Below are positions 8,358 through 62,860 of a stretch of 64,000 bases of DNA, piece after piece. This DNA comes from Clostridia bacterium (GTDB taxonomy: Bacteria; Bacillota; Clostridia; Christensenellales; Aristaeellaceae), in assembly GCA_036645955.1 (NCBI GenBank), contig JAVXND010000002.1, positions 36,845-100,844 on the forward strand, in the 5' to 3' direction. The translations under genes and the position numbers were made by a program. Numbering within the stretch: the stretch's first letter is position 1; each line of letters opens with the position of its first letter. Under the pieces are notes generated by a model that was not told the DNA's origin, made no database searches, and saw only the letters and a program-made list of their open reading frames with translations.

Positions 8358-8536
8358 CGCGCAAACCTCCGCTATTCTGTACGTTGGGTAGTGTGTGCAG
8401 ATGTGGCGCAATGCATGTATCGCATCGTTTGTTCGTTTGCTTTGTGATGGATTTAATGATGAAAAATGCGTGATTTCATCTTGCGTTTATGGTATGATAA
8501 GCTTCATTTGGCAAGCAAAAAAGAAGGAGTATGAAA

Positions 8537-19298: not shown

Positions 19299-19327
19299 TT
19301 GACACCTTAACAGAAAAGTGATATTCT
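19299..19327 (+). promoter_or_regulatory. Sigma-A-type promoter of the iscR-nifS-nifU operon
   Basis: TTGACA (19299-19304), a 17-nt spacer, then TATTCT (19322-19327) with an extended TG at 19319-19320. Confidence 0.6.
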
Positions 19328-19368
19328 TCATTCGATACCCGATGAAAACACTCGGGTATCGAATGAAG
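19326..19368. promoter_or_regulatory. Perfect 17-bp inverted repeat (candidate Rrf2 operator or leader hairpin)
   Basis: CTTCATTCGATACCCGA - tgaaaacac - TCGGGTATCGAATGAAG. The left arm overlaps the -10 element. The right arm ends inside the GAAGGGAG RBS, 10 nt before the iscR ATG. Confidence 0.7.
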
Positions 19369-19377
19369 GGAGCCTGC

Positions 19378-19824
19378 ATGAAGCTATCAACACGCGGTAA
19401 ATATGGGCTTTACGCCATGTTCGATCTTGCCAAGCACGCAGGGGAAGGGCCTCGCGCATTGCAAAGCATTGCCGCAACGGGCGTTCCAAAGCAATATTTG
19501 GAACAACTTTTGGGCAACCTGCGCCGTGCGGGTTTGGTGAGCACTGTGCGCGGTGCACAAGGCGGGTACCTCATTACCAGACCCACGAATGAAATTTCTC
19601 TGCTCAACATTATCGATGCGGTAGAAGGCCCCATTGAACTGAGCGAATGTACCTCCGACGAGCATACCTGCGAGCGCTCATGCGGCTGTCCCGTTCGTTG
19701 GGTGTGGCAGCAGGTAACCGATTCCATCAATGCCGAGCTTGACAAAATCAAGCTCTCCGATATGCTGATTCAACCATGCGAAAGCGAGGAAAGGACCCAT
19801 GAAAAAGATCATTTACATGGATAA
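19378..19824 (+). CDS. Rrf2-family transcriptional regulator (IscR/CymR-like)
   Basis: [18 protein letters not shown]... (Rrf2 wHTH) and a C-terminal Cys cluster CERSCGC. Start moved to ATG 19378, giving 148 aa. Confidence 0.9.
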
Positions 19825-20968
19825 TGCGGCCACAACCGCTGTACGCCCCGAGGTGCTTGAAACCATGATGCCATATTTTACACAGTATTATGGCAACCCA
19901 AGCTCTATACACAGCGTAGGGCGGGATGCACGCCGAGCAGTGGAAAATGCACGTCGGCAAGTGGCTTTGGCCATTGGTGCGGATGCACGCGAAATTTACT
20001 TTACCGCAGGCGGCAGTGAAAGCGATAACTGGGCCATTCGCTGTGCTACCGCCGCCCTTGCAAACAAGGGCAAGCATATTATCACCAGCGCCGTTGAGCA
20101 CCATGCGGTTTTACATACCTGTGCGATGCTTGAAAAGCAAGGCTATCGCATAACCTATCTGCCTGTAGATGGGGAGGGGCTTGTTAAGCCGCAGGATGTT
20201 CGAAACGCCCTTTGCGATGATACCGTACTCATTACCATCATGGCGGCGAACAATGAAATTGGTACCCTACAGCCCATTGCTGAAATTGGCAAAATTGCCA
20301 AGGCGGCGGGTATTCTTTTCCATACAGACGCAGTGCAGGCCGTGGGAGCGGTTCCCATTGATGTGAACGCTTTGCAGGTGGACATGCTCAGCCTTTCTGG
20401 TCATAAGTTTCATGCACCAAAGGGCGTTGGAGCACTATACATCCGCAAGGGCGTAAAAATCAAAAATTTGATTTACGGAGGCGCGCAGGAACGCGGCCTT
20501 CGCGCAGGCACAGAAAATGTTCCCGGAATTGTGGGACTGGGCAAAGCAATTGAGCTTGCCGTTTCAGAATTGCCTGAATATACACAGAAAATGACGCATC
20601 TGCGGGATCGCTTGATTGATGGTATATTGGCTGAAATCCCCAATGTACGCCTCAACGGGCACCGTACCCTTCGTTTGCCTGCCAATGTGAATGTATCGGT
20701 GCGCTATGTGGAGGGCGAAGCATTGCTGATGCGCCTTGATTTGGCTGGCATAGAAGGCTCCAGCGGTTCGGCTTGCACCAGCGGGAGCTTGGACCCGTCT
20801 CATGTGCTGTTGGCCATTGGTCTGCCTCACGAAATAGCCCATGGCAGTTTAAGGCTATCCCTTGGCACCGAAAACACGGATGAGGATGTGGACAAGGTGC
20901 TTGCGGAGCTGCCCAAAATTGTTGAAAACCTACGCGCAATGAGCCCGCTCAACCCTGTGAATGCCTAA
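19799..20968 (+). CDS. nifS: Cysteine desulfurase (NifS/IscS type)
   Basis: YMDNAATT, the [10 protein letters not shown] pyridoxal-lysine region, and the active-site loop SSGSACTSG. Confidence 0.92.
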
Positions 20969-21005
20969 ATAACAAAACAGCCGCTTTTAAGGAGGATAAC
21001 ATTTT

Positions 21006-21386
21006 ATGTACAGCGAAAAAGTAATGGAACACTTTGAACATCCCCGCAATGTGGGCGAAATTCCAAATGCATCGGGTACAGGCACGGTTGGCAATGCCAA
21101 GTGCGGCGATATTATGAAAATGGATATCAAGGTGGAGAATAACATCATTACGGATGTGAAGTTTAAGACCTTCGGTTGCTGTGCCGCTATTGCCACCAGC
21201 AGCATGGCTACTGAAATGGTTATGGGGAAAAGCGTTGACGAAGCGCTTGAGCTTACCAACAAAGCCGTTGCGGAAGCGCTGGATGGTCTGCCCCCTGTTA
21301 AAATGCACTGCTCATTGCTTGCCGAGGAGGCAATCCATGCGGCAGTGGAGGATTATCAAAAAAAGCATGCCTCAGGGAATGCTTGA
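21006..21386 (+). CDS. nifU: Fe-S cluster assembly scaffold (NifU N-terminal/IscU type)
   Basis: GNAKCGD, FKTFGCCAAIA and MHCS motifs; strong RBS AAGGAGG. Confidence 0.92.
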   Translation: MYSEKVMEHFEHPRNVGEIPNASGTGTVGNAKCGDIMKMDIKVENNIITDVKFKTFGCCAAIATSSMATEMVMGKSVDEALELTNKAVAEALDGLPPVKMHCSLLAEEAIHAAVEDYQKKHASGNA

Positions 21387-38619: not shown

Positions 38620-39162
38620 ATGGAAGTACTGTTGGTGATTGGGCTTGTGGGTTGGCTGATCATGTCCTTTTGGGAAAAAGCAAAGAAATCAGCTGAGGAT
38701 GCAAAGCATTCAACGGAGATAAATGCCGCGCCGACCGATCATGCCACGGCTCCGAGCAGCTCGCAGGCAACGGCAAATTCGGAATTCAAAAAAGTAAAAA
38801 TCAAGCCTCAGCATAAGGAGGCGATCGCCGCGGCGGCTCAAAAAACAATGGCCAGAACGGAAATGGAATGCAGTACCTTTGGTACGGAATACACCCCAAT
38901 GAAGCACCGTATGGAGGATGTGAAGCCATCGGATTTTCGCCAAGGAAGCATGGATTATGTGTCCACCGAGGGTACGGACTTATGTGATCCATCCCTTGCG
39001 CATTCGCGTGCGCAACGCAGTTTAGACGGCACAGCCAATATATACGATGAGCAAATTACCAGTACGCCCTTGATTGATCTGCGCGCGCACGCCATACTTC
39101 AAGGGGTTATTATGAGTGAGATTTTACAGCGCCCCGCGCAAAGAAAGTGGGGGAAAATCTAA
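38620..39162 (+). CDS. Hypothetical single-pass membrane protein (position equivalent to Bacillus yqfB)
   Basis: Strong RBS AAAGGAGG, N-terminal TM segment VLLVIGLVGWLIMSFW, and a low-complexity middle region. No family was recognised. Confidence 0.6.
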   Translation: MEVLLVIGLVGWLIMSFWEKAKKSAEDAKHSTEINAAPTDHATAPSSSQATANSEFKKVKIKPQHKEAIAAAAQKTMARTEMECSTFGTEYTPMKHRMEDVKPSDFRQGSMDYVSTEGTDLCDPSLAHSRAQRSLDGTANIYDEQITSTPLIDLRAHAILQGVIMSEILQRPAQRKWGKI

Positions 39163-39165
39163 CTT

Positions 39166-39921
39166 ATGGAGGATTTGCGCGTACTGATTGCGGATGATGA
39201 CAGCGGCATGCGTAGCGTGATGCGGAAAATGATCGGCAAGGTGGAGGGCTTCACATTAGCGGCTGAAGCAGGCGACGGAAAAACCGCGCTTGAATTGATT
39301 GAAAAAATCAAGCCGCATGTGGTGTTTTTGGATGTGGAAATGCCTGAAATGACAGGCGTTGAATGTGCGCATGTGATTCAAGATTTAAATCCTGCTACCA
39401 TTATTATTTTTGCAACAGCACATGATGCTTATATGGGCGATGCTTTTGAGGTATATGCCTTTGATTATTTGGTGAAGCCCTTTAAGGTGGATCGCGTGAT
39501 TCAAACCCTGGAGCGTGCGCGTGACCGCTTGCTGCTCAAGGATGTAAAGCCGCTTGACACCCACTTGCCAGCCAATGAAAAGCGCTCCACAGATGGCCGC
39601 TTAATGCTTCGGCACCGCGAAGGGGTTAGCTTTATTGACTTAAAGGATATTTTGCTTGTACAGCGAGAGGATCGCGCAACCGTGATTTATACGGTGAACG
39701 AGGGGCGTTTTGTAACAGGCGATTCGCTCGCTGATATGGAAGAGCGCCTGCATAGCGATGCGTTTTTCCGTTGCCACAAAAGTTACATTATTAACTTGAA
39801 TGCAATGAAGGATATTACTCCCTATGGGCGATGGACTTATGTGGTTCAGCTTGAGGGAACAAAGCATGATGCGTTGATTACACATGAAAAATATGAAGAG
39901 CTGGAACGAATGTTTCGCTAA
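39166..39921 (+). CDS. LytTR-family response regulator (REC + LytTR DNA-binding domain), no cognate kinase nearby
   Basis: REC domain (VLIADDD..., FLDVEMPEMTG, KPF). LytTR domain (FFRCHKSYIINLNAM). The gene starts 4 nt after the upstream stop. Confidence 0.88.
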   Translation: MEDLRVLIADDDSGMRSVMRKMIGKVEGFTLAAEAGDGKTALELIEKIKPHVVFLDVEMPEMTGVECAHVIQDLNPATIIIFATAHDAYMGDAFEVYAFDYLVKPFKVDRVIQTLERARDRLLLKDVKPLDTHLPANEKRSTDGRLMLRHREGVSFIDLKDILLVQREDRATVIYTVNEGRFVTGDSLADMEERLHSDAFFRCHKSYIINLNAMKDITPYGRWTYVVQLEGTKHDALITHEKYEELERMFR

Positions 39922-51314: not shown

Positions 51315-52433
51315 TTAGGAGTGCCGTTTTCGCATATGGATGCTGACGGCTATGCCAAGCCCACACATTGCACACAGAAGCGCAATGACAAGCAAACCTA
51401 TGGGGGTATGATCACCAGTGCTAGGAGGAGGGGTTACGGCTGTGCCATCTGTCACGGTGATGGTTGTTGAAACCGAGTTGTTTTTATAATAATCGCCCCT
51501 CAAGCCTATGGTTACAATATGCTTCCCTGCGCTTAGTGTGTTTAAGTAGAGCGGATTCATCCGAATCACAATACTGCCATCATGAACGGTGTATGTATTT
51601 GTGCCCGGCAGAACTTTGTTTCCGTCCATCAGCAAATATGAAAAATTATTTGAATTGAAACGCGCAAGCTCTGAACCTATGGTTATGTTCATCACATCCG
51701 CTTTACCCATTGTAATTACGGAGGAAGGCGAGCAGCTGACGGAAGGTGCTTCTAAGATGGTGATGGTTGTTGAAAGTATCATGCCTTCGTAAGGAGCCAA
51801 TCTCAAGCCTATGGTTATGGTGTGCTTCCCAAGGCTTAATGCTTTCAAGTATTTTGGTTGCAACTTAATAATAATGGAGTTGATATCTGGATAATGCCAA
51901 TAAACATAGGTATCTAAACTGGCTGAAATTTTGACCCCATCCATCATAAAATATGAAAAATTATTCACATAGAAACCTGGAATATTTGAAACAAGGAATA
52001 TGGGTACTTCATTGTCATTGCTTGCATTAATGGTTAATGGGGGTGAGATACTTACCGTGGCTTTGGCGTCGATGGTAATGGAAAACGCAGCGGTATCGGT
52101 TTGACCTGCCCCATCGCTGGCTTTGACCGTAAAATTGGCTGTTTGTACTTTGGTGGGGTTGCCGCTTAGCACACCTGCACCGGATAGGATCAAACCATCG
52201 GGCAGACTGCCGCTTTCTATGAGCCATGTAATGGGGGCGTTACCTGTTGCAGTTAATGTATGGCTGTATGGAGCATTTACGGCACCCACACACGGAACGT
52301 TGCTTTTGTCAATTATCAGGGCGGTGGGTGATCCATTGGTGACCTGACCCTCCGATGCCATTGAAATGCCTGGGATAATGCTGCATATCATCATCATGAT
52401 GATGAATGTGAGTATTAGGATGGAACGTTTCAT
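51315..52433 (-). CDS. Cell-surface protein: signal peptide, He_PIG/cadherin-like Ig domain, two ~97-aa internal repeats, PPSTG sorting-signal-like C-terminus
   Basis: - Signal peptide MKRSILILTFIIMMMICSII.
- YSHTLTATGNAPITWLIESGSLPDGLILSGAGVLSGNP (putative Ig domain).
- Repeat pair NNFSY(F/L)(M/L)MDG...LS(L/A)GKH(T/I)(I/V)TIGLR.
- Tail is PPSTG, a hydrophobic stretch, then RKRHS.
- Lower GC than its neighbours. Confidence 0.75.
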   Translation of the reverse strand: MKRSILILTFIIMMMICSIIPGISMASEGQVTNGSPTALIIDKSNVPCVGAVNAPYSHTLTATGNAPITWLIESGSLPDGLILSGAGVLSGNPTKVQTANFTVKASDGAGQTDTAAFSITIDAKATVSISPPLTINASNDNEVPIFLVSNIPGFYVNNFSYFMMDGVKISASLDTYVYWHYPDINSIIIKLQPKYLKALSLGKHTITIGLRLAPYEGMILSTTITILEAPSVSCSPSSVITMGKADVMNITIGSELARFNSNNFSYLLMDGNKVLPGTNTYTVHDGSIVIRMNPLYLNTLSAGKHIVTIGLRGDYYKNNSVSTTITVTDGTAVTPPPSTGDHTPIGLLVIALLCAMCGLGIAVSIHMRKRHS

Positions 52434-52685
52434 TTTAAACAATTCCTTTCACTGTGTTCAAGGCACAGGCAGCTCTGAAATATGGACATAACAGCCTTAA
52501 CTGTCAATAATTATAGTGTATCATACAGAAAGCATGAAGTAAATATAAAATGAAAATAAAGTAAAAAATATGCATATGATGATACGTGTGCCGAAAGGTT
52601 TTCTGGCTGGATCGCTGGGTTGGTGAACGCAAACTGGGAGAACACTATATATGGTGCCCCTACAAGGAATGCAGTATTCATGCTA

Positions 52686-52730
52686 CCAAAACAAACGGCT
52701 GGGGCAAAATGCCTCAGCCGTTTGTTTTGG
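52686..52730 (-). terminator. Terminator hairpin downstream of the hydrogenase unit
   Basis: CCAAAACAAACGGCTG - 13-nt loop - CAGCCGTTTGTTTTGG, located 8 nt after the hydA-like stop. Confidence 0.75.
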
Positions 52731-52737
52731 TGCTTGT

Positions 52738-54171
52738 TTATTCTTGATAACTGCACTGCGATAGCGCATCACTGATGGTTTTTTCGTAGGCCTCGCGCCC
52801 GTACTTGTCCACCTCGTTTTTATCCTTTTCGCCATGCGTGAGACAGCCCGCACCGCCGATACAGCCGCCCACACAGGCCATACCCTCGATAAAGTTCTCC
52901 TTCAGCACACCCTTTTGAAGCTTGAGAAGCGCAATGCGGCAGGCCTCAATGCCATCGCATGCAACGGGGTTCAGAATAAAATCGGTGTTGCCGCGCTCCT
53001 TGAGCGCCTCTGCAACCGCGTCCGTTAAGCCGCCGCTTCTGGCAAAGATACGGCCATAGAAGCTGGCGTTGTCCAAAACACCCTCCTCAAGCGCGGACAT
53101 GTCAATATCGCGGCTGTCAATCCATGCTTGCAGCTCTGAAAAGGTCAGCACACAATCGATGTAGGGCTTGACGCGTTCCAGCTGTGCTTCGTGTTTCTTG
53201 GCGGTACAGGGGCCGATAAAGATGATTTTTGCAGTCGGATCGGTTTTTTTGATAAAGCGCGCAACCTCGGCCATGGGGGAGAGGTTACTGCTGACATATT
53301 TTTTAAGCGCAGGGTATGTTTTTTCGATGTAGGTGACAAAGGCAGGGCAGCAGGAGGAGGTAAGCAACCCTTTTTCTGTTAACTCGCCCGCCTCGCGGTG
53401 AGCTACCATGTCTGCGCCTAAAGCGGCTTCAACGGTGCTGTAAAAGCCCAGCACCTTGAGCGCTGTAATAACCTGCCCAAGCTTTGCATATACAAATTGG
53501 CTGGAGATGGAGGGGGCCACCACGGCATATACCTTGTACTGTTGGTTGTTTTGGCTTTCCCGAATCATGGAAATCGCATTCAACAGGAAGGATTTTTCTT
53601 GGATGGCACCAAAGGGACATTGGTATACGCATGCGCCGCAAGCGGTGCATTTGTTGTCGTCAATCACGGCGACGTGGTTTTCGCCAGAGGTGATGGCCTT
53701 GACCTTGCAGGCGCGTTCGCAGGGGCGCACATGGTTTTGAATGGCGCTGTAAGGGCAGACGGCGGCGCATTTGCCGCAGTTGACACATTTGTCGGGATCA
53801 ATATGCGCGTGGTGGTTCTGATCGAAGGTGATGGCTTTTCTAGGGCATACACTACTGCAACGGTGCGCAAGGCATCCACGGCAATCACTGCTTACTTTGT
53901 AGCCGCTGGTTGGGCATTCGTCACAGGCAATGCCAATAACCTCAACAATATTTGCGTTGCTTGGGTCGCCGCCCATGGCAAGCTTTACGCGTTCCGCTAC
54001 GATGGCGCGTTCCTTATAAACACAGCAACGCATGGTGCTATTGGGGCCAGGGGAAATAACCTTGGGAATGTCCAAATAACAATCCCTCAAGGTATTGTCG
54101 TAGGCGTGCTTGGCAACCTCCTTGAGCACATTGTATTTCAGCTTTTGTACGTAGGTATCAAATAAATGCAT
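52738..54171 (-). CDS. [FeFe]-hydrogenase, catalytic type with multiple N-terminal [4Fe-4S] motifs (HydA2-like; probably group B)
   Basis: Several CxxCxxCxxxCP motifs. H-cluster motifs are TSSCCPAF (L1), GPCTAKKHE (L2) and EGMACVGGCIGGAGC (L3). Confidence 0.85.
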   Translation of the reverse strand: MHLFDTYVQKLKYNVLKEVAKHAYDNTLRDCYLDIPKVISPGPNSTMRCCVYKERAIVAERVKLAMGGDPSNANIVEVIGIACDECPTSGYKVSSDCRGCLAHRCSSVCPRKAITFDQNHHAHIDPDKCVNCGKCAAVCPYSAIQNHVRPCERACKVKAITSGENHVAVIDDNKCTACGACVYQCPFGAIQEKSFLLNAISMIRESQNNQQYKVYAVVAPSISSQFVYAKLGQVITALKVLGFYSTVEAALGADMVAHREAGELTEKGLLTSSCCPAFVTYIEKTYPALKKYVSSNLSPMAEVARFIKKTDPTAKIIFIGPCTAKKHEAQLERVKPYIDCVLTFSELQAWIDSRDIDMSALEEGVLDNASFYGRIFARSGGLTDAVAEALKERGNTDFILNPVACDGIEACRIALLKLQKGVLKENFIEGMACVGGCIGGAGCLTHGEKDKNEVDKYGREAYEKTISDALSQCSYQE

Positions 54172-54190
54172 AATGCCCTCCAGTGTAGCT

Positions 54191-55363
54191 TTAGAAGTAG
54201 GATAGCCGTATGTGCTTGCCCATGCGCTTTAAGCAATCCGCAAGGCTTTGAATGAGCTGCTGTTTAATGCCGAAGGTAATGGGGAGATTTGGGTTTTGGT
54301 GCGCGGGGTTGATGGCACGGCCAACAAAGAAGTTGATATCCGTGGCGTTTTCAAAAAGCTCCTTGGCAATGAGGCTCGCACCATCCTTTTGTGTAATCCA
54401 TTGAGGCACGAGCTTGGCACTATCCAAAAAATCCTCTGCGTAAGCAAGCACCTTGGAAAGGGTGACAACGCCCTCCGTGACCAATTCAACGCCCTCGATT
54501 TCGCTGATGGGCGGAACCTCGGGGTCGGGATAGCTAAGAGAGGCAATCAGCGGCTTTTTGAGATAGCGTGCCACCAAACTGCTTGTGGTGCCGCCGCATA
54601 CTATTCTAGTCCCTTCCTTGGCAAAAAACAAGTTCAACATGCGGGTATCTTGATCCTTGTTTTCAGGGGGACCCACCACCAGGTTCACAGGATGGCGGCT
54701 TCGTACCCTTACCACGGCGATGGTGGTATCATCCCCGGGCTTGCCGCCATAGAGGCGGTTGCATTCGTCGGTGATTAAACCCGCTGTGGATTTGGCGCTG
54801 TTTTCGGCGAGATAGTTGCACATCACATAATCAGCAATGCTGTCGCGTGTCCAGCCAAAGTTGAAGGTTTGACCCACTCCCGCAAATTCAGCGCCATCGC
54901 TCATGGCAATCAAAACATCGTCCACTTCAATTGGGAAAGTGCTTTCCCAAATGGTTTTGCCGGCAATCACGCGCGTTTCCTTTGGGTAATCAAACATTTC
55001 GCCTTTGCGCAGTACAATGGTGGCGGGGTTGTCAAACTGAATAATTTGCGCGGTTCGGTTTTCCTTGATGCTGATAATGGTGAAGGTTGAATATGCCACT
55101 TGGCGCACACTGCATACAGGCAGGGTGCTGGCAATGGTGCTGACGCAGTCCTCAATGGGAATGCCGCCCGAAATCATGGTGCACAAAATTTTGCTGGTGA
55201 GTGTGGAAAGAATGTTGGCTTTTACGCCGCTTCCCAAACCATCGGCTAGTACGAGGGTTAGATTTTCATCTCCGCCGCCGCTCATTTCCACACGATCGCC
55301 GCAGAGGGATTCACCTGATTTGTTCAGGCTGATATAGCCAGTTTCGGTCCATAGATCATTCAT
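54191..55363 (-). CDS. SpoIIE/PP2C-family protein phosphatase with ~165-aa C-terminal domain of unknown function
   Basis: ESLCGDRVE, LVLADGLGSGVKA, AMSDGA and GDDTTIAVVRV (PP2C metal-binding Asp motifs). There is an 8-nt overlap with the upstream hydS-like gene. Confidence 0.85.
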   Translation of the reverse strand: MNDLWTETGYISLNKSGESLCGDRVEMSGGGDENLTLVLADGLGSGVKANILSTLTSKILCTMISGGIPIEDCVSTIASTLPVCSVRQVAYSTFTIISIKENRTAQIIQFDNPATIVLRKGEMFDYPKETRVIAGKTIWESTFPIEVDDVLIAMSDGAEFAGVGQTFNFGWTRDSIADYVMCNYLAENSAKSTAGLITDECNRLYGGKPGDDTTIAVVRVRSRHPVNLVVGPPENKDQDTRMLNLFFAKEGTRIVCGGTTSSLVARYLKKPLIASLSYPDPEVPPISEIEGVELVTEGVVTLSKVLAYAEDFLDSAKLVPQWITQKDGASLIAKELFENATDINFFVGRAINPAHQNPNLPITFGIKQQLIQSLADCLKRMGKHIRLSYF

Positions 55364-57023
55364 GGCTCATCGCATCCTTTAGCTTGGTGAGGGCAATCTT
55401 GGTTTCCGCGGTGGTTTCACCTAGAAGAGAAGCTATTTCTTGCACCACGCGCATTTGCTTATCGATGACCTTGTCGGCGGTTTCAACGGTGCTTCGGCGA
55501 AGCGCCGCGTCCTGCCCGCGCAGGTTTTCGCGTTCGGTCACATCGCGCAGCAGGGAAATAACAATGTGGTATTGATGATCGTACAGTATGGTTTCTTCTA
55601 CAAAGCACTGATATTCAGCTAAATAATGCTCAATGGTAGAGGAGCTGAGCGCAGAGTTGATAATGTTTTGATAGTTTGCGGGGTTTAGGATGCGCACCAC
55701 ATGTTCATGCAAAATATCGGAGGCGGCGGTCAGCTTAAACATGCGCACAGCGGCGCGGTTGATTTGCTGTACAACCAAGTCCTCGTCCATAACAAGAATG
55801 GCGTTGGGGGTGTTGTTGATAATGGTATCGGAGAAGCTTTCCGCCTTTTCTTTTAAAAAGGGCAGGCACATTTCAATTTTGGCTTTTCCTTCTAAAATGG
55901 CAATGGCTTTTTCGCGGCAGGTGGGGTAACCACAGCTTGCGCAGTTGAGTTCTTTGTCGGGCGAGGTTTTGCCCATTTTGAAGAGCATGGCAGAAATGGT
56001 TTCAGAGCCGAACTGCACAGGCTTGCCGCCCAAAAAGGCAAAGGAATGCCCCAAATCACGCGGCGATTCCACTTGATAGCGAAGATCGCCTGCATAGGTA
56101 TCAACGCGCAGCGTGCCCTTCAAGCGGCGCTCGTGATGCTCGCGAATGCAGGGGCCGTTGATACAGCTGCCTTCACAGGCGCTCATTTCGATAAAAACAT
56201 CGCTCATGGTGCCGTTTTCAAGCTCTTCAAACACAGCGCGGCAGTTGTCCACACCATCAATGGCTACGCGGCGATAGCCCTCTACTTTTTCAGTGGCCTT
56301 TAAAATGCCGCCTGTGGCAGGATAAAAGCGCGCTTGCATTCCATTGCCTGAAAGTGTGCGTTCGGCAGGTAAATCAATGTTTTCTTGTGCAAACCAATCC
56401 CGAAGCTCGTCGTAGGTGAGCGCTACATCGGTATAGGGGCTATCGTCCGCTTCGGCTTTTTTGGCAATGCAGGGGCCGATAAAAACGGCGAATGCATCGG
56501 GGTCCTGTTCTTTGATATATTTGCAATGCGCCTGCATAGGCGACAGAACTTTTGCAAGGTAGGGGAGCATGGAGGGATGGTACTTTTGAATCAGCTGATT
56601 AATGGAAGGGCAGCAGCTGGAAATCAGCACGCCTTGTTTTTTGCTCCGCATGATGTGAGCATATTCATCGCTGACCATTTGGGCGCCGATTGCGGTTTCC
56701 TCCACGCGGGAAAAGCCAAGCGCTTTTAAAGCCTTTTCCATTACCGCAAGGGATGAAATGCGGAAATCGGCAATAAAGGAAGGCGCAAGACTGCAAACAA
56801 CATGCTTGCCAGAAGCAATGGCGGCCTTTACGCGCCCAAGATCGCTTCGAACTTGCTTTGCTTTTTGAGGGCAGACCACAAAGCAGCTTCCGCATAAAAT
56901 ACACTCATCATGCACAATTTCGGCGGTGTCGTTGGCAAAGGTGATGGCTTTGACGGAACAAGTACGGATGCATTTATAGCAATCCACACAATTGTTTTTA
57001 TTAAGATTCAGAACTTCAAGCAT
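55356..57023 (-). CDS. hydS: Sensory-type [FeFe]-hydrogenase-like protein with C-terminal Cys4 motif and PAS domain (HydS-like, group C)
   Basis: - N-terminal 2x[4Fe-4S] (CVDCYKCIRTCS, CILCGSCFVVCP).
- H-cluster motifs SSCCPS, GPCIAKKAE and EMSACEGSCINGPC.
- Then CASCGYPTCREKA...C and a PAS-like region (IINNTPNAILVMDEDLVVQQINRAA).
- Start is ATG 57023 after AAAGGAG. Confidence 0.8.
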   Translation of the reverse strand: MLEVLNLNKNNCVDCYKCIRTCSVKAITFANDTAEIVHDECILCGSCFVVCPQKAKQVRSDLGRVKAAIASGKHVVCSLAPSFIADFRISSLAVMEKALKALGFSRVEETAIGAQMVSDEYAHIMRSKKQGVLISSCCPSINQLIQKYHPSMLPYLAKVLSPMQAHCKYIKEQDPDAFAVFIGPCIAKKAEADDSPYTDVALTYDELRDWFAQENIDLPAERTLSGNGMQARFYPATGGILKATEKVEGYRRVAIDGVDNCRAVFEELENGTMSDVFIEMSACEGSCINGPCIREHHERRLKGTLRVDTYAGDLRYQVESPRDLGHSFAFLGGKPVQFGSETISAMLFKMGKTSPDKELNCASCGYPTCREKAIAILEGKAKIEMCLPFLKEKAESFSDTIINNTPNAILVMDEDLVVQQINRAAVRMFKLTAASDILHEHVVRILNPANYQNIINSALSSSTIEHYLAEYQCFVEETILYDHQYHIVISLLRDVTERENLRGQDAALRRSTVETADKVIDKQMRVVQEIASLLGETTAETKIALTKLKDAMSHE

Positions 57024-57091
57024 GCTAAGCGCTCCTTTAATATGAAAGAAAGGGGGCTGCTGCATAGCGCATCGGCCCCCTGCTTTGCCTC

Positions 57092-57334
57092 TTATTTGAG
57101 ACGGGTCAGGACTTCGTTTTCAAAGAAGTTTTTGGTATCTTCGGGTTTCAATGAAAAATTTTCATCGTCGATGGTTACGCAAACACCGTTTTGGCAATTG
57201 CCCATGCAAAACTTCCCAGCCAGCTCAATTTTATCTTTAAGCTCGCTTTCAGCGACCAAGCGCTGCATTTCCTCTACGATTTGGCGTGAACCCTTCAGGT
57301 GACAGCTCGAACCGATACAAATGGTAATTTTCAT
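57092..57334 (-). CDS. Thioredoxin-like [2Fe-2S] ferredoxin (NuoE/HndA-like small protein)
   Basis: 80 aa, MKITICIGSSCHLKGS...FCMGNCQNGV, i.e. a C-x4-C...C-x3-C pattern. Confidence 0.75.
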   Translation of the reverse strand: MKITICIGSSCHLKGSRQIVEEMQRLVAESELKDKIELAGKFCMGNCQNGVCVTIDDENFSLKPEDTKNFFENEVLTRLK

Positions 57335-57380
57335 AATGAGTGCTATGCTCCTTTGCTTGATGGTCGGCGTTGAAGGAGAG

Positions 57381-57403
57381 GCCTGAGGGCTTAGCCCTCA
57401 GGC
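57381..57403 (-). other. 10-bp GC-rich stem-loop in the 99-nt spacer between the kinase-fold gene and the ferredoxin gene
   Basis: GCCTGAGGGC - tta - GCCCTCAGGC. No U-tract on the minus strand, so it may be a processing/stability element or a weak attenuator. Confidence 0.5.
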
Positions 57404-57433
57404 TGAAACTGTAGGACGTGGACAACCAATGCA

Positions 57434-58186
57434 TTATTCGTAATCGACTACGTTAACCCAGTGCAATAGGAATTCGCGCTCCTCTGCCTTGCCCTTGACG
57501 CTTTGGCTTGCCGCTACAATGGGAATCCATTTTTGCACGTATTGCTTTGCGGTATCGCTCTTTTTGCAGAACAGATCCAGATACTTTTCGGCACCGTCAA
57601 TATCGCCTGCCAGCCAAAACAACAAGTAGGTGCGTGCCGCGTCTGCGCTGGCATTTCCCTGCGTGGCATGCGACCAGTCCAAAATGTAGGGCGCATTGTC
57701 GCTTTTGCGGATGATGATATTCTTGGGATCAAAATCGCCGTGGCAGAGCTTGTTGTGAATGGGCATGCCCTCCAAACGGGTATGCAGCTCGTAACGCGTG
57801 GTGGCATCTAACCCGCTCATGCTGATTTTGCGGTTCATTTTGTCGCGCAGCTTGTTAAGCAGAGGGCAGGTTTGCTTGTGAACGCTCAACTGCAAATCCA
57901 CAAATTGCTCCATGTACTGATCGTACTGGGCGGGGTTTTCCTCCATGAGGGCAGCGAGCGTCTTGCCTTCGATGAATTCACTTACAATGGACCATTTGCC
58001 GTTGTATTTTGTGACTTCCTCAAGCGTGGGTACGTTGAGTGCTGTTTCCTCTACGCGGGCTTGGTTGAGAGCCTCGTTGAGCACATCAGCCTTGCTGTAA
58101 TCACTGTCGAATACCTTGATGACATATTCGCCGTCGCGGTAAACGGTCTTGTTGGTGCGCACTGCAATTACCTTTTCTGGCTTCAT
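57434..58186 (-). CDS. Protein-kinase-fold phosphotransferase (APH/ChoK-like family)
   Basis: VIKVF (beta-3 Lys region), catalytic-loop-like LCHGDFDPKNIII (HGDxxxxN), and ILDWSHA (Mg-binding Asp). RBS AAGGAGG with a 7-nt spacer. The gene starts 21 nt after the adhE stop. Confidence 0.75.
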   Translation of the reverse strand: MKPEKVIAVRTNKTVYRDGEYVIKVFDSDYSKADVLNEALNQARVEETALNVPTLEEVTKYNGKWSIVSEFIEGKTLAALMEENPAQYDQYMEQFVDLQLSVHKQTCPLLNKLRDKMNRKISMSGLDATTRYELHTRLEGMPIHNKLCHGDFDPKNIIIRKSDNAPYILDWSHATQGNASADAARTYLLFWLAGDIDGAEKYLDLFCKKSDTAKQYVQKWIPIVAASQSVKGKAEEREFLLHWVNVVDYE

Positions 58187-58207
58187 AAGATCGCCTCCTT
58201 GCTTCCT

Positions 58208-60820
58208 TTACTTATTTTCATCGCCATAGTAGGCGTTCAAGTACATTTGCTTGATTTCCTTCATGAGCGGGTAGCGGGGGTTTGCGCCGGTGCATTGGTC
58301 ATCAAACGCTTGCTCAACCATGTCGTCCAAACGGGCAAGGAAATCGGTTTCGTCAATTCCGTAGGCTTTGATTGTGGGCTTGATCCCGATTTTGCCTTTG
58401 AGGTCATCAATGGCCGCAATCAGGCTTGCTACCTTTTGGTCGTCTGTTTTTCCGCCCAATCCAAGTGCGTCCGCAACCATTGCGTATCTTGCCATGGTGT
58501 GAGGGTGGTCGTACTGCGGGAAGGTACCCATTTTGGTGGGAACCTCGGCGGCGTTAAAGCGGATGACCTCGTTAATCATGAGCGCATTGGCTACGCCGTG
58601 GGGCAGGTGGTGGAAAGCGCCCAGCTTATGCGCCATGGAGTGGCAAACCCCTAGGAAAGCATTTGCAAATGCCATACCAGCCATGGTGGCCGCGTTGGCC
58701 ATTTTCTCGCGGGCAATGGCATCGCTGAGGCCATCGTTATAGGCGCGGGGCAGGTAAGCAAAAATCATCTTGAGGCTTTGCAGTGCAAGACCGTCGGTGT
58801 AGTCGGTTGCGAGCATGCTGGCAATGGCTTCAAGGTCGTGGGTAACAGCGTCAATACCGCTTGCGGAGGTAAGACCCTTGGGTGCGTTCATCATGAGGTC
58901 CGCATCCACAATGGCCATTTTGGGCATAAGCTCATAATCTGCCAATGGGTATTTGACACCCGTTTGCTCGTCCGTAATCACGGCGAAGGGGGTAACCTCA
59001 CTGCCTGTACCTGCGGTGGTAGGCACGGCGATAAAGTAAGCCTTTTCGCCCATCTTGGGGAATTGATAGATACGTTTGCGAATATCGCTGAAACGCATGG
59101 CCATATCGAGGAAATCCGCTTCGGGATGCTCGTAGAGCACCCACATGATTTTTGCGGCATCCATGGCACTGCCGCCGCCGATGGCGATAATGCAATCAGG
59201 CGCAAAGGCGGTCATGGCGGCGCAGCCTTCACGGGCAGAGGCCAAGGTCGGGTCGGGCGCAACATTAAAGAAAGTAGCGTGGGTAATGCCCATTTCATCC
59301 AAACGGTCTGTAACCGCTTTGGTGTAGCCGTTTTGGAAGAGGAACTGGTCGGTGACGATAAAGACCTTCTTCTTATTCATCACGTTCTTGAGCTCTTGAA
59401 GCGCTACGGGCAGGCAACCCTTCTTGATATAGACCTTTTCGGGCGCACGGAACCACAGCATATTCTCTCTCCTCTCGGCAACGGTTTTGATGTTGAGCAA
59501 GTGCTTTACGCCAACGTTTTCGCTCACGGAGTTGCCGCCCCAAGAGCCACAGCCAAGCGTGAGGGAGGGGGCAAACTTGAAGTTGTACAGATCTCCAATG
59601 CCGCCCTGCGAGGAGGGCGTGTTAACCACGATACGGCAGGTTTCAACCATTTGGGCAAACTTCATGAGCTTTTCGCGCTGGGTGTTGGGGTTTAGGTAAA
59701 TAGAAGCGGTGTGACCATGGCCGCCATCCTCAATGAGGCGTTCGGCTTTCTTTGCCGCATCTTCAAAATCCTTGGCTTTATACATGGCAAGCACGGGGGA
59801 GAGCTTTTCGTGAGCAAACTCTTCGCTTAGCTCCACACTTTCCACTTCACCGATCAAAATCTTTGTGCTTTCAGGCACGGCAACGCCTGCAATGGCGGCA
59901 ATTTTGAAGGCGGATTGGCCCACGATTTTGGCATTGAGGGAGCCGTTGATGATGATGGTGCGGCGAACCTTGTCCAGATCCTCCCCTTCAAGGAAGAAAC
60001 AGCCGCGAGCGGCAAACTCCTTGCGCACTTCCTTGTAAATGCTTGCGGGTACAATCACGCTCTGCTCGGAGGCGCAAATCATGCCGTTATCGAAGGTTTT
60101 GGAATGGATGATGGAGTTGACGGCAAGCAGAATATCCGCGCTTTCATCAATGATGGCGGGTACGTTGCCAGCGCCTACGCCTAGGGCAGGCTTGCCGCTG
60201 GAATAAGCGGCGCGAACCATGCCGGGGCCGCCTGTGGCAAGGGTTAAATCACAATCCCGCATGACCATGTTGGTCATTTCAAGGCTGGGCACATCCACCC
60301 AGCTGATAATGCTTTCAGGTGCGCCTGCCGCAACGGCCGCATCCAGCACTACCTTTGCGGCAGCAATGGTGGAGCGCTTTGCACGCGGGTGGGGGGAAAT
60401 GATGATGCCGTTACGCGTTTTCAGCGCAATCAGCGTCTTAAAAATGGCGGTGGAGGTGGGGTTTGTGGTGGGAATGACTGCGGCAATGACCCCAATGGGA
60501 TCAGCAATTTTGGTAATGCCGTAGGCTTTGTCTTCTTCTATGATACCACAAGTTTTGGTGTCGCGGTAGGCGTTATAAATATATTCGGAGGCAAAATGAT
60601 TTTTGATGACTTTGTCCTCTACAATGCCCATACCCGTTTCCTCAACGGCGAGCTTTGCTAAGGGCAAGCGCATCTTATTGGCAGCCATGGCGGCTGCAAA
60701 GAAAATATGATCTACTTGCTCTTGAGTGTATTCGGAGAATTTCCTTTGTGCTGCACGCACGCGTGTGATTTCTTCCTCAAGGCGTTCCACGGTGTCTACA
60801 GTGCTGCGGGTGTCAATCAT
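58208..60820 (-). CDS. adhE: Bifunctional acetaldehyde-CoA/alcohol dehydrogenase
   Basis: 870 aa. N-terminal ALDH domain (catalytic-Cys region FDNGMICASEQS). C-terminal Fe-ADH domain (GGGSAMDAAK, HSMAHKLG). Confidence 0.95.
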   Translation of the reverse strand: MIDTRSTVDTVERLEEEITRVRAAQRKFSEYTQEQVDHIFFAAAMAANKMRLPLAKLAVEETGMGIVEDKVIKNHFASEYIYNAYRDTKTCGIIEEDKAYGITKIADPIGVIAAVIPTTNPTSTAIFKTLIALKTRNGIIISPHPRAKRSTIAAAKVVLDAAVAAGAPESIISWVDVPSLEMTNMVMRDCDLTLATGGPGMVRAAYSSGKPALGVGAGNVPAIIDESADILLAVNSIIHSKTFDNGMICASEQSVIVPASIYKEVRKEFAARGCFFLEGEDLDKVRRTIIINGSLNAKIVGQSAFKIAAIAGVAVPESTKILIGEVESVELSEEFAHEKLSPVLAMYKAKDFEDAAKKAERLIEDGGHGHTASIYLNPNTQREKLMKFAQMVETCRIVVNTPSSQGGIGDLYNFKFAPSLTLGCGSWGGNSVSENVGVKHLLNIKTVAERRENMLWFRAPEKVYIKKGCLPVALQELKNVMNKKKVFIVTDQFLFQNGYTKAVTDRLDEMGITHATFFNVAPDPTLASAREGCAAMTAFAPDCIIAIGGGSAMDAAKIMWVLYEHPEADFLDMAMRFSDIRKRIYQFPKMGEKAYFIAVPTTAGTGSEVTPFAVITDEQTGVKYPLADYELMPKMAIVDADLMMNAPKGLTSASGIDAVTHDLEAIASMLATDYTDGLALQSLKMIFAYLPRAYNDGLSDAIAREKMANAATMAGMAFANAFLGVCHSMAHKLGAFHHLPHGVANALMINEVIRFNAAEVPTKMGTFPQYDHPHTMARYAMVADALGLGGKTDDQKVASLIAAIDDLKGKIGIKPTIKAYGIDETDFLARLDDMVEQAFDDQCTGANPRYPLMKEIKQMYLNAYYGDENK

Positions 60821-60841
60821 GGTTTCCCATCCCCTTTCTGT

Positions 60842-60859
60842 TCGTTAAAAGTTTAACAT
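60842..60859. promoter_or_regulatory. Rex-like operator upstream of adhE
   Basis: TCGTTAAAAGTTTAACAT matches TTGTTAA-N4-TTAACAA at 12 of 14 specified positions. It lies 22-39 nt upstream of the adhE ATG. Confidence 0.6.
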
Positions 60860-60919
60860 AATTGTGGCACGTTGTAAATGATGAACTTTATATAGTGATA
60901 TATAGTAATGGATATAACC

Positions 60920-60967
60920 AAAAAAGCGAAAAGAAAGCGCCCAAGTGCGAAGAGCCTTGGGCGCTTT
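60920..60967 (-). terminator. Rho-independent terminator after perR
   Basis: On the minus strand: AAAGCGCCCAAG - loop - CTTGGGCGCTTT followed by CTTTTCGCTTTTTT. Confidence 0.85.
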
Positions 60968-60977
60968 AACCATTTCG

Positions 60978-61361
60978 TTAAGGTTCGCATTCAGGGCAAA
61001 GCCCTACAAGCACAATGGAATGCCACTCCGTGGTATAGCCCGGAAGGCTTGCGGAAGCATTGTTGAGCGCTTCGTAATACGGCAGCTCTGTATCGACCAC
61101 CTTCAAGCATTTTCTGCATAGAAAATGGTAATGGTGCTTGGCATCGCAATCAAAATGGACGGGGCCGCTCGGCATGGGAATTCGTCCGATTTCATCATTG
61201 TCGGCCAATAGATTCAGGTTGCGGTACACGGTTGCGCGGCTGATGCGCGGATCCTTCACACGTGCCATTTCGTAGACCTCATCAGCTGTTGGATGGCTGT
61301 AATTGCCTTCAACAAGGCTTAACACCAGCCTGCGTTGCGGCGTGCTGCGGAGCTGCTTCAT
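60978..61361 (-). CDS. perR: Fur-family peroxide-responsive repressor (PerR-like)
   Basis: [31 protein letters not shown] and CPEC (structural Zn Cys4). There is a 4-nt overlap with the katA stop. Confidence 0.8.
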
Positions 61362-62860
61362 ATGGTTGCGTTGATCAATTCCTGATGGCTGAGCGTAGAA
61401 AGCGCTTTGACCTTTTCCATGTCAAGCCCTGCGGCTTTCACAAAGCGAGTGCCATATTCAGGATCGGCTAAATAGCAATGGGCGGCATGACGAAGCTTGA
61501 TGTTTTCGGTGCAGGGGGCAATGTCGCCTGCGGTGTTGCTGATGAGCACGGCTTTTTGCTCCTCTGTGAGCACACGCCATAGATCGCCGCCTGCACGGAA
61601 GCAATCGTCGGTGGGGTCATCCTTGGGATCGTAACGGTACATAGCGCCTTCCAAATCAAGCGGCGGCTCCATGACCTCGGGCTGTGCGGTCCATGCGCCG
61701 TAGCTGTTGGGGGAATAGGCAGGAGCGGCACCATAATTGCCGTCCACACGCATGGCACCATCACGGTGATAATCGTTCACCTCGCAATGCGCGCGGTTGA
61801 CGGGAATGAGGTTATGGTTGACACCTAGGCGATAGCGCTGTGCATCACCATAGGCAAAGAGGCGGCCTTGCAAAAAGCGGTCGGGAGAAAAACCAATGCC
61901 AGGCACCACATGCGCGGGGGTGAAGGCGGACTGCTCAACCTCTGCAAAATAATTTTCGGGGTTGCGATTGAGCTCCAACACACCTACCTCAATGAGGGGG
62001 AATTCCTTGTGCTTCCATATTTTTGTGATATCGAAGGGGTTTTCGTAATGGTTTTTGGCTTGCTCCTCCGTCATGATCTGCACATACATGGTCCACTTGG
62101 GAAACTCGCCGCGTTCAATGGCTTCGTAGAGATCTTTCCCGTGATGCTCGCGATCCATGCCGTTGATTTTCATGGCTTCATCGTTGGTTAAGTTCTTAAT
62201 GCCCTGCTGGGTTTTGAAATGGAACTTGCACCATACGCGCTCGTTCTTTTCATTATAGAAGGAAAAAGTGTGCTCGCCGAAAAAATGCATGTTGCGGAAG
62301 GTGGCGGGTATGCCGCGATCGCTCATGACCACCGTAATTTGGTGAAAGCACTCAGGCAGCATGGTCCAAAAATCCCAGTTGTTTTGGGAGGAGCGGCGGC
62401 CTGTTTTGGGGTCGCGTTTCACGGCGCGGTTTAGGTCGGAGAAGTTATGCACATCGCGGATAAAAAAGGTGGGGGTGTTGTTGCCAACCAGATCCCAGTT
62501 GCCTTCTTCGGTATAGAACTTGACGGCAACGCCGCGAATATCGCGTTCGCAATCTGCCGCGCCGCGCTCGCCGGCAACGGTTGAAAAACGCAGAAAGAGC
62601 TCTGTTTCCTTACCAAGCTGGAGCACCTTGGCACGGGTGTACTTAGAAATGTCCTTGGTAATGGTCAGCTTGCCATAAGCGCCCCAGCCTTTGGCATGCA
62701 TACGGCGTTCGGGAATGACCTCGCGGTTAAAGTGCGCCATTTTTTCAAGAAGCCAAACATCCTGCATGACAACCGGACCGCGAGGACCAGCGGTAATTGC
62801 GTTTTCATTGTCAGCAACGGGAGCGCCAACTTCATTGGTGAGCTTTTTAAAATCATCCAT
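61358..62860 (-). CDS. katA: Monofunctional heme catalase
   Basis: [31 protein letters not shown] and the proximal Tyr region [14 protein letters not shown]. Strong RBS AAAGGAGG. Confidence 0.93.

Follow-up and report, generated by a model that had tools for sequence, protein, structure and literature searches.

The closest described relative of the locus reported here is the 'high-H2' fermentation cluster of Ruminococcus albus 7, which is carried by plasmid pRUMAL01 and has the gene order rex-adhE-phosphotransferase-fdx-fdx-hydS-SpoIIE-hydA2. Greening et al. 2019 (PMC6776011) reported that this eight-gene cluster was 111-fold down in co-culture with an H2 consumer and was the most strongly regulated unit, and stated that sensor, hydrogenase and alcohol dehydrogenase genes share a transcript. 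In the established physiology of R. albus, AdhE and a ferredoxin-only hydrogenase are the electron sinks at high H2, when the bifurcating hydrogenase is thermodynamically blocked. A hypothesis for the R. albus 7 cluster is also attributed to Zheng et al. 2014, as that study is cited in PMC5707799 and PMC10838669. Here we analysed a stretch of 64,000 nt (64 kb, the window) from a contig labelled 'Clostridia bacterium' and concentrated on a block of six program-called open reading frames (ORFs) at positions 52738-60859. This block is orthologous to the R. albus cluster and is a new example, from an uncultured Clostridia lineage, of a published and widespread system found in hundreds of gut Clostridia, and we consider it likely that it forms a Rex-controlled unit expressing two electron sinks under H2 build-up, AdhE and a group B hydrogenase, together with its own sensor.

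A second counterpart is found in Clostridium thermocellum, where Cthe_0422-0431 (Clo1313_1793-1799) have the order rex-adhE-aminoglycoside phosphotransferase-small protein-Fe-S/PAS hydrogenase-SpoIIE, the same as in the window through the PP2C phosphatase gene. These genes are co-regulated (PMC3848806; also PMC3561251), and two Acetivibrio loci of our survey (L043 and L061) show this type of order directly. What comes after the module differs: in C. thermocellum it is a bifurcating group A hydrogenase of the NuoE/NuoF type (Cthe_0428-0430), in the window a monomeric group B enzyme.

The last four genes of the block resemble hfsABCD of Thermoanaerobacterium saccharolyticum and T. thermosaccharolyticum, a likeness based on published descriptions and gene order and not on sequence comparison: HfsA is a small Fe-S protein, HfsB a PAS hydrogenase, HfsC a Ser phosphatase and HfsD a ferredoxin-linked hydrogenase (PMC11837493), and the order is the same in the window. 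In Thermoanaerobacterium, however, adhE lies at a separate locus with a genetic link to hfs, while in the window adhE and a kinase-fold gene are fused upstream of the four genes. Deletion of hfsA or hfsB raises the adhE transcript and alcohol dehydrogenase (ADH) activity, an effect that needs intact hfsC and hfsD (PMC5707799). Eminoglu et al. observed that ADH activity changed on hfsB deletion but aldehyde dehydrogenase (ALDH) activity did not, and post-transcriptional effects were proposed (PMC5707799).

A six-gene block orthologous to the high-H2 cluster

The block consists of six consecutive ORFs, all on the minus strand, in the order adhE, kinase-fold gene, ferredoxin gene (fdx), hydS, PP2C gene and hydA2. 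A tblastn search of a plasmid collection found pRUMAL01, and by its annotation the genes, their order and their strand are the same as in the window, with protein identities from AdhE to HydA2 of 76, 69, 64 (for the ferredoxin, against the first R. albus copy), 50, 55 and 66%, and the overlap of hydS with the PP2C gene is 8 nt in both. Like its R. albus counterpart, the block would place the proposed high-H2 branch, made up of ethanol formation and a ferredoxin-only hydrogenase, under the control of a putative sensor of H2. The two loci differ in some respects: the window has one ferredoxin gene and R. albus two; the window has no rex beside adhE but a Rex operator instead, with perR and a terminator upstream; the gap between the kinase-fold gene and fdx is 99 nt long and structured, against 17 nt by annotation in R. 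albus; and the window comes from contigs of metagenome-assembled genomes (MAGs) with housekeeping genes, while the R. albus cluster is on a plasmid. The single ferredoxin, the lack of an adjacent rex and the structured gap are minor variations that are common among relatives.

Conservation of the block was evaluated in a survey that took a single genome for each GTDB species. More than 8000 relatives of the kinase-fold protein are present in the databases, many at 76-87% identity, and at least 598 species representatives carry the gene at a confirmed locus; the neighbourhood counts given below come from the best 80 of these. One or two fdx genes, hydS and the PP2C gene follow the kinase-fold gene in 45 of 58 loci, usually with a group B hydrogenase, which in Acetivibrio loci is replaced by a bifurcating group A enzyme. 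Gene order is conserved over Oscillospiraceae, Lachnospiraceae, Acetivibrio and Christensenellales-like MAGs. The window itself is matched by identical MAG contigs labelled 'Clostridia bacterium', GCA_036635635.1 among them; the nearest species representative among the matches listed is a Candidatus Limiplasma MAG, which has the six genes in the same order at 82-89% identity. The initial annotation of this DNA, made from the sequence alone, had proposed a synteny comparison of the block, regarding lack of conservation in related genomes as an argument against it; the block is in fact kept in dozens of genomes. On the other hand, the direct linkage to adhE, which had been put forward as noteworthy, is not new, because the R. 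albus and C. thermocellum clusters (the latter visible in Cthe_0422-0430) had already been described; in our survey adhE lies directly upstream of the kinase-fold gene in all 59 loci with enough flanking sequence.

The packing of the genes agrees exactly with the coordinates given in the initial annotation. The intergenic gaps calculated from the coordinates, with the hydS start at 57023, are 21, 99, 68, -8 and 19 nt, and by folding the two short junctions of 19-21 nt (adhE with the kinase-fold gene, PP2C with hydA2) contain a ribosome-binding site (RBS) but no structure. At the 5' boundary of the block stands the terminator of the upstream catalase-perR unit (60920-60967, minus strand; -23.4 kcal/mol, z -4.2), which continues into UUUCUUUUCGCUUUUUU and thus has a U-tract. 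After hydA2 the block is closed by a bidirectional intrinsic terminator at 52686-52730 (-37.7 kcal/mol, z -9.6), in which a GC core stem lies between an A-tract and a U-tract. It had been claimed that convincing terminators occur only upstream and downstream of the unit, and for strong terminators this is what folding gives; nevertheless, the interior holds two hairpins, so that the claim does not extend to every structured element.

The first of these hairpins (57381-57403, minus strand) is a GC-rich 10-bp stem without a U-tract in the gap between the kinase-fold gene and fdx, a gap that folds at -32.5 kcal/mol (z -2.8). Situated where two modules meet, it may serve in transcript processing or stabilisation, or act as a partial terminator. 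Over 67 loci this gap is bimodal: in about 45 it measures 11-37 nt and is unstructured, while in about 22 it measures 71-290 nt and folds very stably (-20 to -108 kcal/mol). Both the window (99 nt, 57335-57433) and its closest relative belong to the long, structured class, and the insert of the window matched no Rfam family. The second hairpin (57044-57081, minus strand), located directly 5' of the hydS RBS, is a GGGGGC/GCCCCC stem followed by UUUCUUUC; its 81-nt region folds at -27 kcal/mol with a z of only -1.7, and with low confidence it could be regarded as weakly terminator- or attenuator-like. In L003, the one relative looked at, the corresponding fdx-hydS gap likewise folds into a GC-rich hairpin. 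A search of the block for known RNA elements (Rfam, E <= 1) returned just two sub-threshold chance matches. Taken together, the spacing and the flanking terminators are consistent with one predicted transcript for all six genes.

Putative sensor, phosphatase, electron sinks and predicted Rex operator

Pfam and NCBIfam models confirmed all the gene identities first proposed for the block: AdhE, a kinase-fold protein, a [2Fe-2S] ferredoxin, a HydS-like protein with a PAS domain, a PP2C phosphatase and a HydA2-like hydrogenase. Two of them are the putative electron sinks. The adhE gene (58208-60820, minus strand) encodes a bifunctional acetaldehyde-CoA/alcohol dehydrogenase of 870 aa (NF010378, 1375 bits, cut-off 951), in which an N-terminal ALDH is fused to a C-terminal Fe-ADH (Pfam domains Aldedh, Fe-ADH and ADH_Fe_C). 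The hydA2 gene (52738-54171, minus strand) encodes an HfsD-like, monomeric, ferredoxin-dependent group B [FeFe]-hydrogenase of 477 aa (TIGR04105 FeFe_hydrog_B1, 544.5 bits, cut-off 450), with the H-cluster motifs TSSCCP, GPCTAKKHE and EGMACVGGC present and with Gly at the Met353 position, as in the group B enzyme CpIII. As for its name, the sources clash: TIGR04105 says group B1, but the text of PMC6776011 calls the R. albus orthologue a 'group A1' ferredoxin-only enzyme.

The sensor would be formed by HydS and the small ferredoxin. The fdx gene (57092-57334, minus strand) encodes a thioredoxin-like [2Fe-2S] ferredoxin of 80 aa (2Fe-2S_thioredx, PF01257, 33 bits) with intact Cys6/Cys11 (CX4C) and Cys43/Cys47 (CX3C), and it corresponds to the small partner of the 'dimeric' sensory hydrogenases. 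The hydS gene (55356-57023, minus strand) encodes a protein of 555 aa, a putative sensory [FeFe]-hydrogenase of group C (phosphatase-linked, M2f-type in the Calusinska scheme), whose domains follow the order 2x[4Fe-4S], H-domain, C-terminal four-Cys cluster, PAS and C-terminal helix. The start at 57023 has an AAAGGAG RBS 8 nt upstream of the ATG; it is backed by homologue alignments beginning at residue 19 of the longer ORF, and gene callers run on the identical MAG contigs also give 555 aa. The longest ORF (569 aa) begins at an ATG at 57065, inside the loop of the upstream hairpin, and is over-extended by 14 codons; the numbering of the H-cluster cysteines used here is that of this 569-aa ORF.

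In the H-domain of HydS (Fe_hyd_lg_C, 178 bits) all four H-cluster cysteines are kept, in L1 (SSCCP, C152), L2 (GPC, C199) and L3 (EMSAC, C297/C301). The C-terminal cluster (PF04060, 40.9 bits, cut-off 23) has C375, C378, C383 and C400, and the PAS domain passes two models (PF00989, 24.4 bits, cut-off 22.6; PAS_8, 22.2 bits, cut-off 21.8). In the second sphere we found the sensor-type changes Met353 to Gly and Met497 to Ser (CpI numbering). Both are shared with the HydS of Thermotoga maritima, which has been characterised biophysically (PMC10055695) and which also has the H-domain, the C-terminal [4Fe-4S] cluster and the PAS domain; the two proteins differ at the proton-relay position C299, where T. 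maritima HydS has Ala and the window HydS has Cys, a residue retained there by about 17% of sensory-type sequences. The initial annotation had considered that the 555-aa protein might turn out to be an ordinary group A enzyme without a PAS domain; instead, the PAS domain is present and the protein scores under the cut-offs of the NCBIfam models for both group A and group B. The R. albus HydS was published as group C, and by its architecture and gene linkage the window protein fits the HydDB group C3, 'phosphatase-linked (putative)'.

The PP2C gene (54191-55363, minus strand) encodes a SpoIIE/PP2C Ser/Thr phosphatase of 390 aa, HfsC-like (PF07228, 46 bits, cut-off 25). The first 8 nt of the gene are shared with the end of hydS, an overlap that is kept in 51 of 56 loci. 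The metal-binding Asp residues (D23, D41-G42, D156-G157 and D211-D212) are invariant in 21 sequences, and the AlphaFold2 model (predicted local distance difference test, pLDDT, 82) superposes in Foldseek on SpoIIE (5mqh, E = 3e-13), RsbX and RsbU. These partner-switching phosphatases, the top structural matches, have the same fold and metal site; unlike them, the window phosphatase has neither a STAS substrate nor an anti-sigma kinase in the block or among the scanned ORFs of the window, and its regulatory part would be an unannotated C-terminal alpha/beta domain together with the separately encoded HydS. This C-terminal domain (residues 222-390, about 170 aa; 54194-54700, minus strand) has a confident AlphaFold2 fold and no Pfam family. 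Its invariant motifs are VCGGTTS, TEGV, DGAS and NPAHQNP.LP; it is carried by about 1040 clusters at 50% identity, mostly in the same PP2C fusion, some of the proteins being apparently stand-alone with about 160 aa, and a profile search of the PDB gave only a weak SIS-like match (E = 0.076). The domain may be a second, metabolite-sensing input.

The Rex-like box that had been noticed before adhE was found at 60842-60859, where the predicted operator, aTGTTAAACTTTTAACgA on the coding strand, overlaps the -10 element. With two mismatches, it is the sole match to TTGTTAAnnnnTTAACAA at two or fewer mismatches in the 64 kb, against 0.4 expected. A sigma-70-like sequence at 60850-60878 (minus strand), TTTACA followed after 17 nt by a TG-extended TAAACT, was obtained by a consensus scan (9/12 plus TG) and would act as the adhE promoter. 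A Rex box in a single window is, alone, weak statistics, and it is phylogenetic footprinting that settles the predicted operator. A box with three or fewer mismatches is present 35-212 nt upstream of adhE in 33 of the 34 orthologous loci without an adjacent rex. Conversely, where rex lies directly upstream of adhE (26 loci), the spacer between the two genes never contains such a box, and in 11 of these loci one is found upstream of rex; in the best-80 set, rex precedes adhE in 25 of 57 loci. From the conservation of the operator we infer that Rex would bind there and that the block is under its control.

On these grounds the working of the unit can be proposed as follows. Rex, encoded elsewhere, would hold the operator over the adhE -10 element and leave it as NADH/NAD+ rises; the resulting transcript would yield AdhE, passing NADH to ethanol, and the ferredoxin-only group B hydrogenase. 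HydS with its small [2Fe-2S] partner would then bind or oxidise H2, the presumed signal, at a slow sensor-type H-cluster, and the C-terminal [4Fe-4S] cluster, with the PAS domain, would pass on the redox state. In turn, HydS would control PP2C, with which it probably forms a complex in fixed proportion because the two are translationally coupled; the step from HydS to PP2C is suggested by the conserved overlap and by the fact that HfsB acts genetically through HfsC and HfsD. Finally, PP2C, probably working against a kinase, would set the phosphorylation of a putative target that raises the level or activity of AdhE and the expression of HydA2. For the window, the H2-dependent co-regulation of the cluster and the regulatory phenotype of hfsB would apply by analogy, since both come from the literature on orthologues. 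The logic is shared with the [NiFe] system HoxBC-HoxJ-HoxA of Cupriavidus necator, where a low-activity hydrogenase senses H2 and controls hydrogenase expression via phosphorylation; that system differs in its unrelated metal centre, in using a histidine kinase and a response regulator instead of a PP2C, and in having a known DNA-binding output. The suggestion of the initial annotation, an H2- or redox-sensing, phosphatase-linked module at the branch point of ethanol and H2, is thus supported, although for the orthologues it is a published hypothesis.

Two separable modules and the possible role of the kinase-fold protein

Several observations weigh against the proposal of a single H2-responsive unit. 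First, the internal hairpins, above all the stable one in the 99-nt gap between the kinase-fold gene and fdx, leave room for processing or attenuation, and the predicted single transcript of six genes is not guaranteed, because of this hairpin and because the two halves of the block are found apart in other genomes. In 13 of 58 loci adhE and the kinase-fold gene occur without the HydS-PP2C module, the downstream genes being heterogeneous and unrelated (L009, L018, L021, L028, L031, L037, L041, L046, L049, L052, L063, L070 and L078), and Monoglobus has fdx-hydS-PP2C-hydA2 with neither adhE nor the kinase-fold gene nearby. Since each part occurs apart from the other, the six-gene unit appears from these gene orders to be a frequent fusion of two modules, adhE-kinase and an hfsABCD-like one. 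Second, even for characterised members, H2 sensing by group C enzymes is still called 'putative' (PMC10055695). Third, tblastn with the R. albus Rex detected no rex in the 64-kb window, so a rex gene inside the window was rejected as a candidate and the regulation must come from a rex elsewhere in the genome.

A further point of this kind concerns the output. The Pfam scan took in 48 of 51 selected ORFs of the window (41 of at least 95 aa in 1-50000, the block and the flanking genes), the other three being the giant ORF at 525-8411 and two ORFs at 38620-39921, and in these 48, examined for a phospho-substrate of the module, it found no STAS protein, anti-sigma factor, histidine kinase or response regulator. 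This agrees with the first reading of the DNA, in which neither a histidine kinase nor a STAS/anti-sigma partner had been seen. The accompanying statement that there is no DNA-binding output is right for the block, which encodes none, but has to be qualified for the window, where the DNA-binding proteins PerR, Rrf2 and ParB are present with no evident tie to the block.

The last point regards the kinase-fold protein itself (57434-58186, minus strand; 250 aa), which may not be the antagonist of the phosphatase. It passes the aminoglycoside phosphotransferase (APH) model PF01636 with 44.4 bits (cut-off 23.2) and remains below the Pkinase cut-off (19.1 bits vs 31.7). The invariant residues are the catalytic K24, H149-G-D151 and N156 of the HGDxxxxN loop, and the metal-binding D170. 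In the AlphaFold2 model (pLDDT 82) only about 8 residues separate D170 from the next helix, so that there is no activation segment (DFG...APE). Foldseek places APH(3')-Ia nearest to this model (E = 3e-7, TM about 0.53), together with the CotS-like YtaA and the kinase domain of a lanthipeptide synthetase; these neighbours are APH-type, but with high root-mean-square deviations, and they do not settle the substrate. By sequence, the only match in the PDB is a marginal one to choline kinase (E = 0.033). A Hanks-type Ser/Thr protein kinase was thus rejected, given the failed Pkinase model and the missing activation segment, and for the same reasons the literature label 'Ser/Thr protein kinase' is an unproven assumption; the protein looks APH-type. 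The initial annotation, which spoke of a kinase-fold protein, was correct as to the fold, but the pairing with PP2C in one switch is only putative, and the kinase co-varies with adhE. Its conservation (71-89%) is close to that of AdhE (72-86%), whereas HydS reaches only 40-53% outside the closest relative L003. From these patterns the kinase appears to track adhE instead of the sensor and to be an obligate neighbour of adhE that is independent of the sensor.

The strongest alternative is built on this behaviour. It holds that the kinase is an accessory of AdhE, either phosphorylating it or acting as an APH/choline-kinase-type small-molecule kinase, and that two independent modules stand side by side under Rex; we regard this as a serious possibility, though not the one we favour. 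The adjacency to adhE in every locus, the sensor module missing downstream in 13 of 58 loci, the module of Monoglobus and the model scores, short loop and conservation values just described all speak for it, as does the inter-module junction, long and structured in the lineage of the window. The separation of hfsABCD from adhE in Thermoanaerobacterium points the same way, the gene next to adhE there, tsac_0415, being no kinase: Tsac_0415 was considered as a kinase orthologue and rejected, as it is a divergently transcribed neighbour of adhE, of unknown function and restricted to Thermoanaerobacterium (PMC5707799). However, wherever the two modules occur together, neither their order nor their common strand ever varies, and mostly only 11-37 nt lie between them; the eight R. 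albus genes shift expression together (PMC6776011); a phosphatase without a cognate kinase in its cluster would be odd; and the Foldseek list does include protein or peptide kinases, in the form of CotS-like YtaA and the lanthipeptide synthetase domain.

A related, more speculative idea, to which we give a rather low probability, sees the 250-aa APH-fold protein as a kinase dedicated to AdhE, or as a regulator bound to it, whose mark the HydS-controlled PP2C would reverse. It would explain why the cluster never includes a DNA-binding output, why the kinase stands beside adhE in all 59 loci, also in those lacking the sensor, and why hfsB deletion alters ADH and not ALDH activity (PMC5707799). 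If true, H2 would act on AdhE activity at the post-translational level, for instance on the half-reaction of ADH or on the assembly of filaments, besides or instead of working through a transcription factor. A literature search for phosphorylation of AdhE gave noise only.

It is unlikely, in our opinion, that Fdx, HydS, PP2C and HydA2 form instead a multisubunit catalytic 'Hfs' hydrogenase, in which HydS would serve as a subunit for catalysis at low activity or for electron transfer, answering the ferredoxin or NADH redox state and not H2, and the PAS domain and the phosphatase would tune the enzyme complex and not expression. Historically this has some basis, as the original description of hfsABCD presented it as the principal hydrogenase for H2 evolution in T. 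saccharolyticum, and deletion of the whole operon lowers hydrogenase activity (PMC5707799, PMC11837493). The proton-relay Cys of HydS (SSCCP), the 'dimeric' description of M2f sensory hydrogenases with a small ferredoxin-like subunit (PMC3561251) and the change of ADH without ALDH in Eminoglu et al. could be read in the same sense. But deletion of hfsB alone raises hydrogenase activity and alters the adhE transcript, which is a regulatory and not a structural phenotype (PMC5707799), and hfsD alone, in a strain without hfsABCD, restores the high-ethanol phenotype of hfsB-deletion strains (PMC11837493). The sensor-type changes at Met353 and Met497 and the low activity of T. maritima HydS (PMC10055695) also speak against it.

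Finally, a merely coincidental packing of independent transcription units without a functional link, for which the two internal hairpins could be cited, is extremely improbable and effectively refuted by the conserved synteny, and it is at odds also with the conserved 8-nt hydS/PP2C overlap, the 19-21 nt gaps that hold an RBS alone and the co-regulation of orthologues (PMC6776011, PMC3848806).

Neighbouring genes and meaning of the locus

Upstream of the block lie a catalase gene (61358-62860, minus strand) and a gene for a PerR-like regulator of the Fur family (60978-61361), which overlap by 4 nt and are parted from the block by the strong terminator; the same neighbourhood is seen in three MAG contigs (L083-L085). 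An oxidative-stress unit thereby adjoins an operon of oxygen-sensitive hydrogenases in a presumed anaerobe. Just downstream, the ORF at 51315-52442 (minus strand) encodes a protein of 375 aa whose N-terminus resembles a signal peptide and which has a He_PIG Ig-like domain and, at its C-terminus, a hydrophobic anchor; it is probably a cell-surface protein without relation to the block. Farther away, at 19318-21386 (plus strand), a Rrf2-family regulator, a class-V aminotransferase (cysteine desulfurase-like) and a NifU-N scaffold make up a unit for Fe-S assembly of the Isc/Suf type, which matters for a metabolism rich in Fe-S but has no link to the block. The giant ORF at 525-8411 (minus strand) has 2628 aa and a TTG start.

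Concerning the signalling of group C hydrogenases, this locus takes the question no further than the R. albus and C. thermocellum models do. Useful by-products of the analysis are the view of the block as two modules, the rule that the kinase accompanies adhE, and the C-terminal domain of PP2C, which lacks an annotation. The survey, nevertheless, sharpens the question: the system is very widespread, it consists of two separable modules, and the kinase is tied to AdhE instead of the sensor, so that AdhE itself becomes a candidate phospho-target. How electrons are divided between ethanol and H2 shapes the transfer of H2 between species in the gut and rumen, and hence methane output, and this division is also a target for the engineering of biofuel strains.

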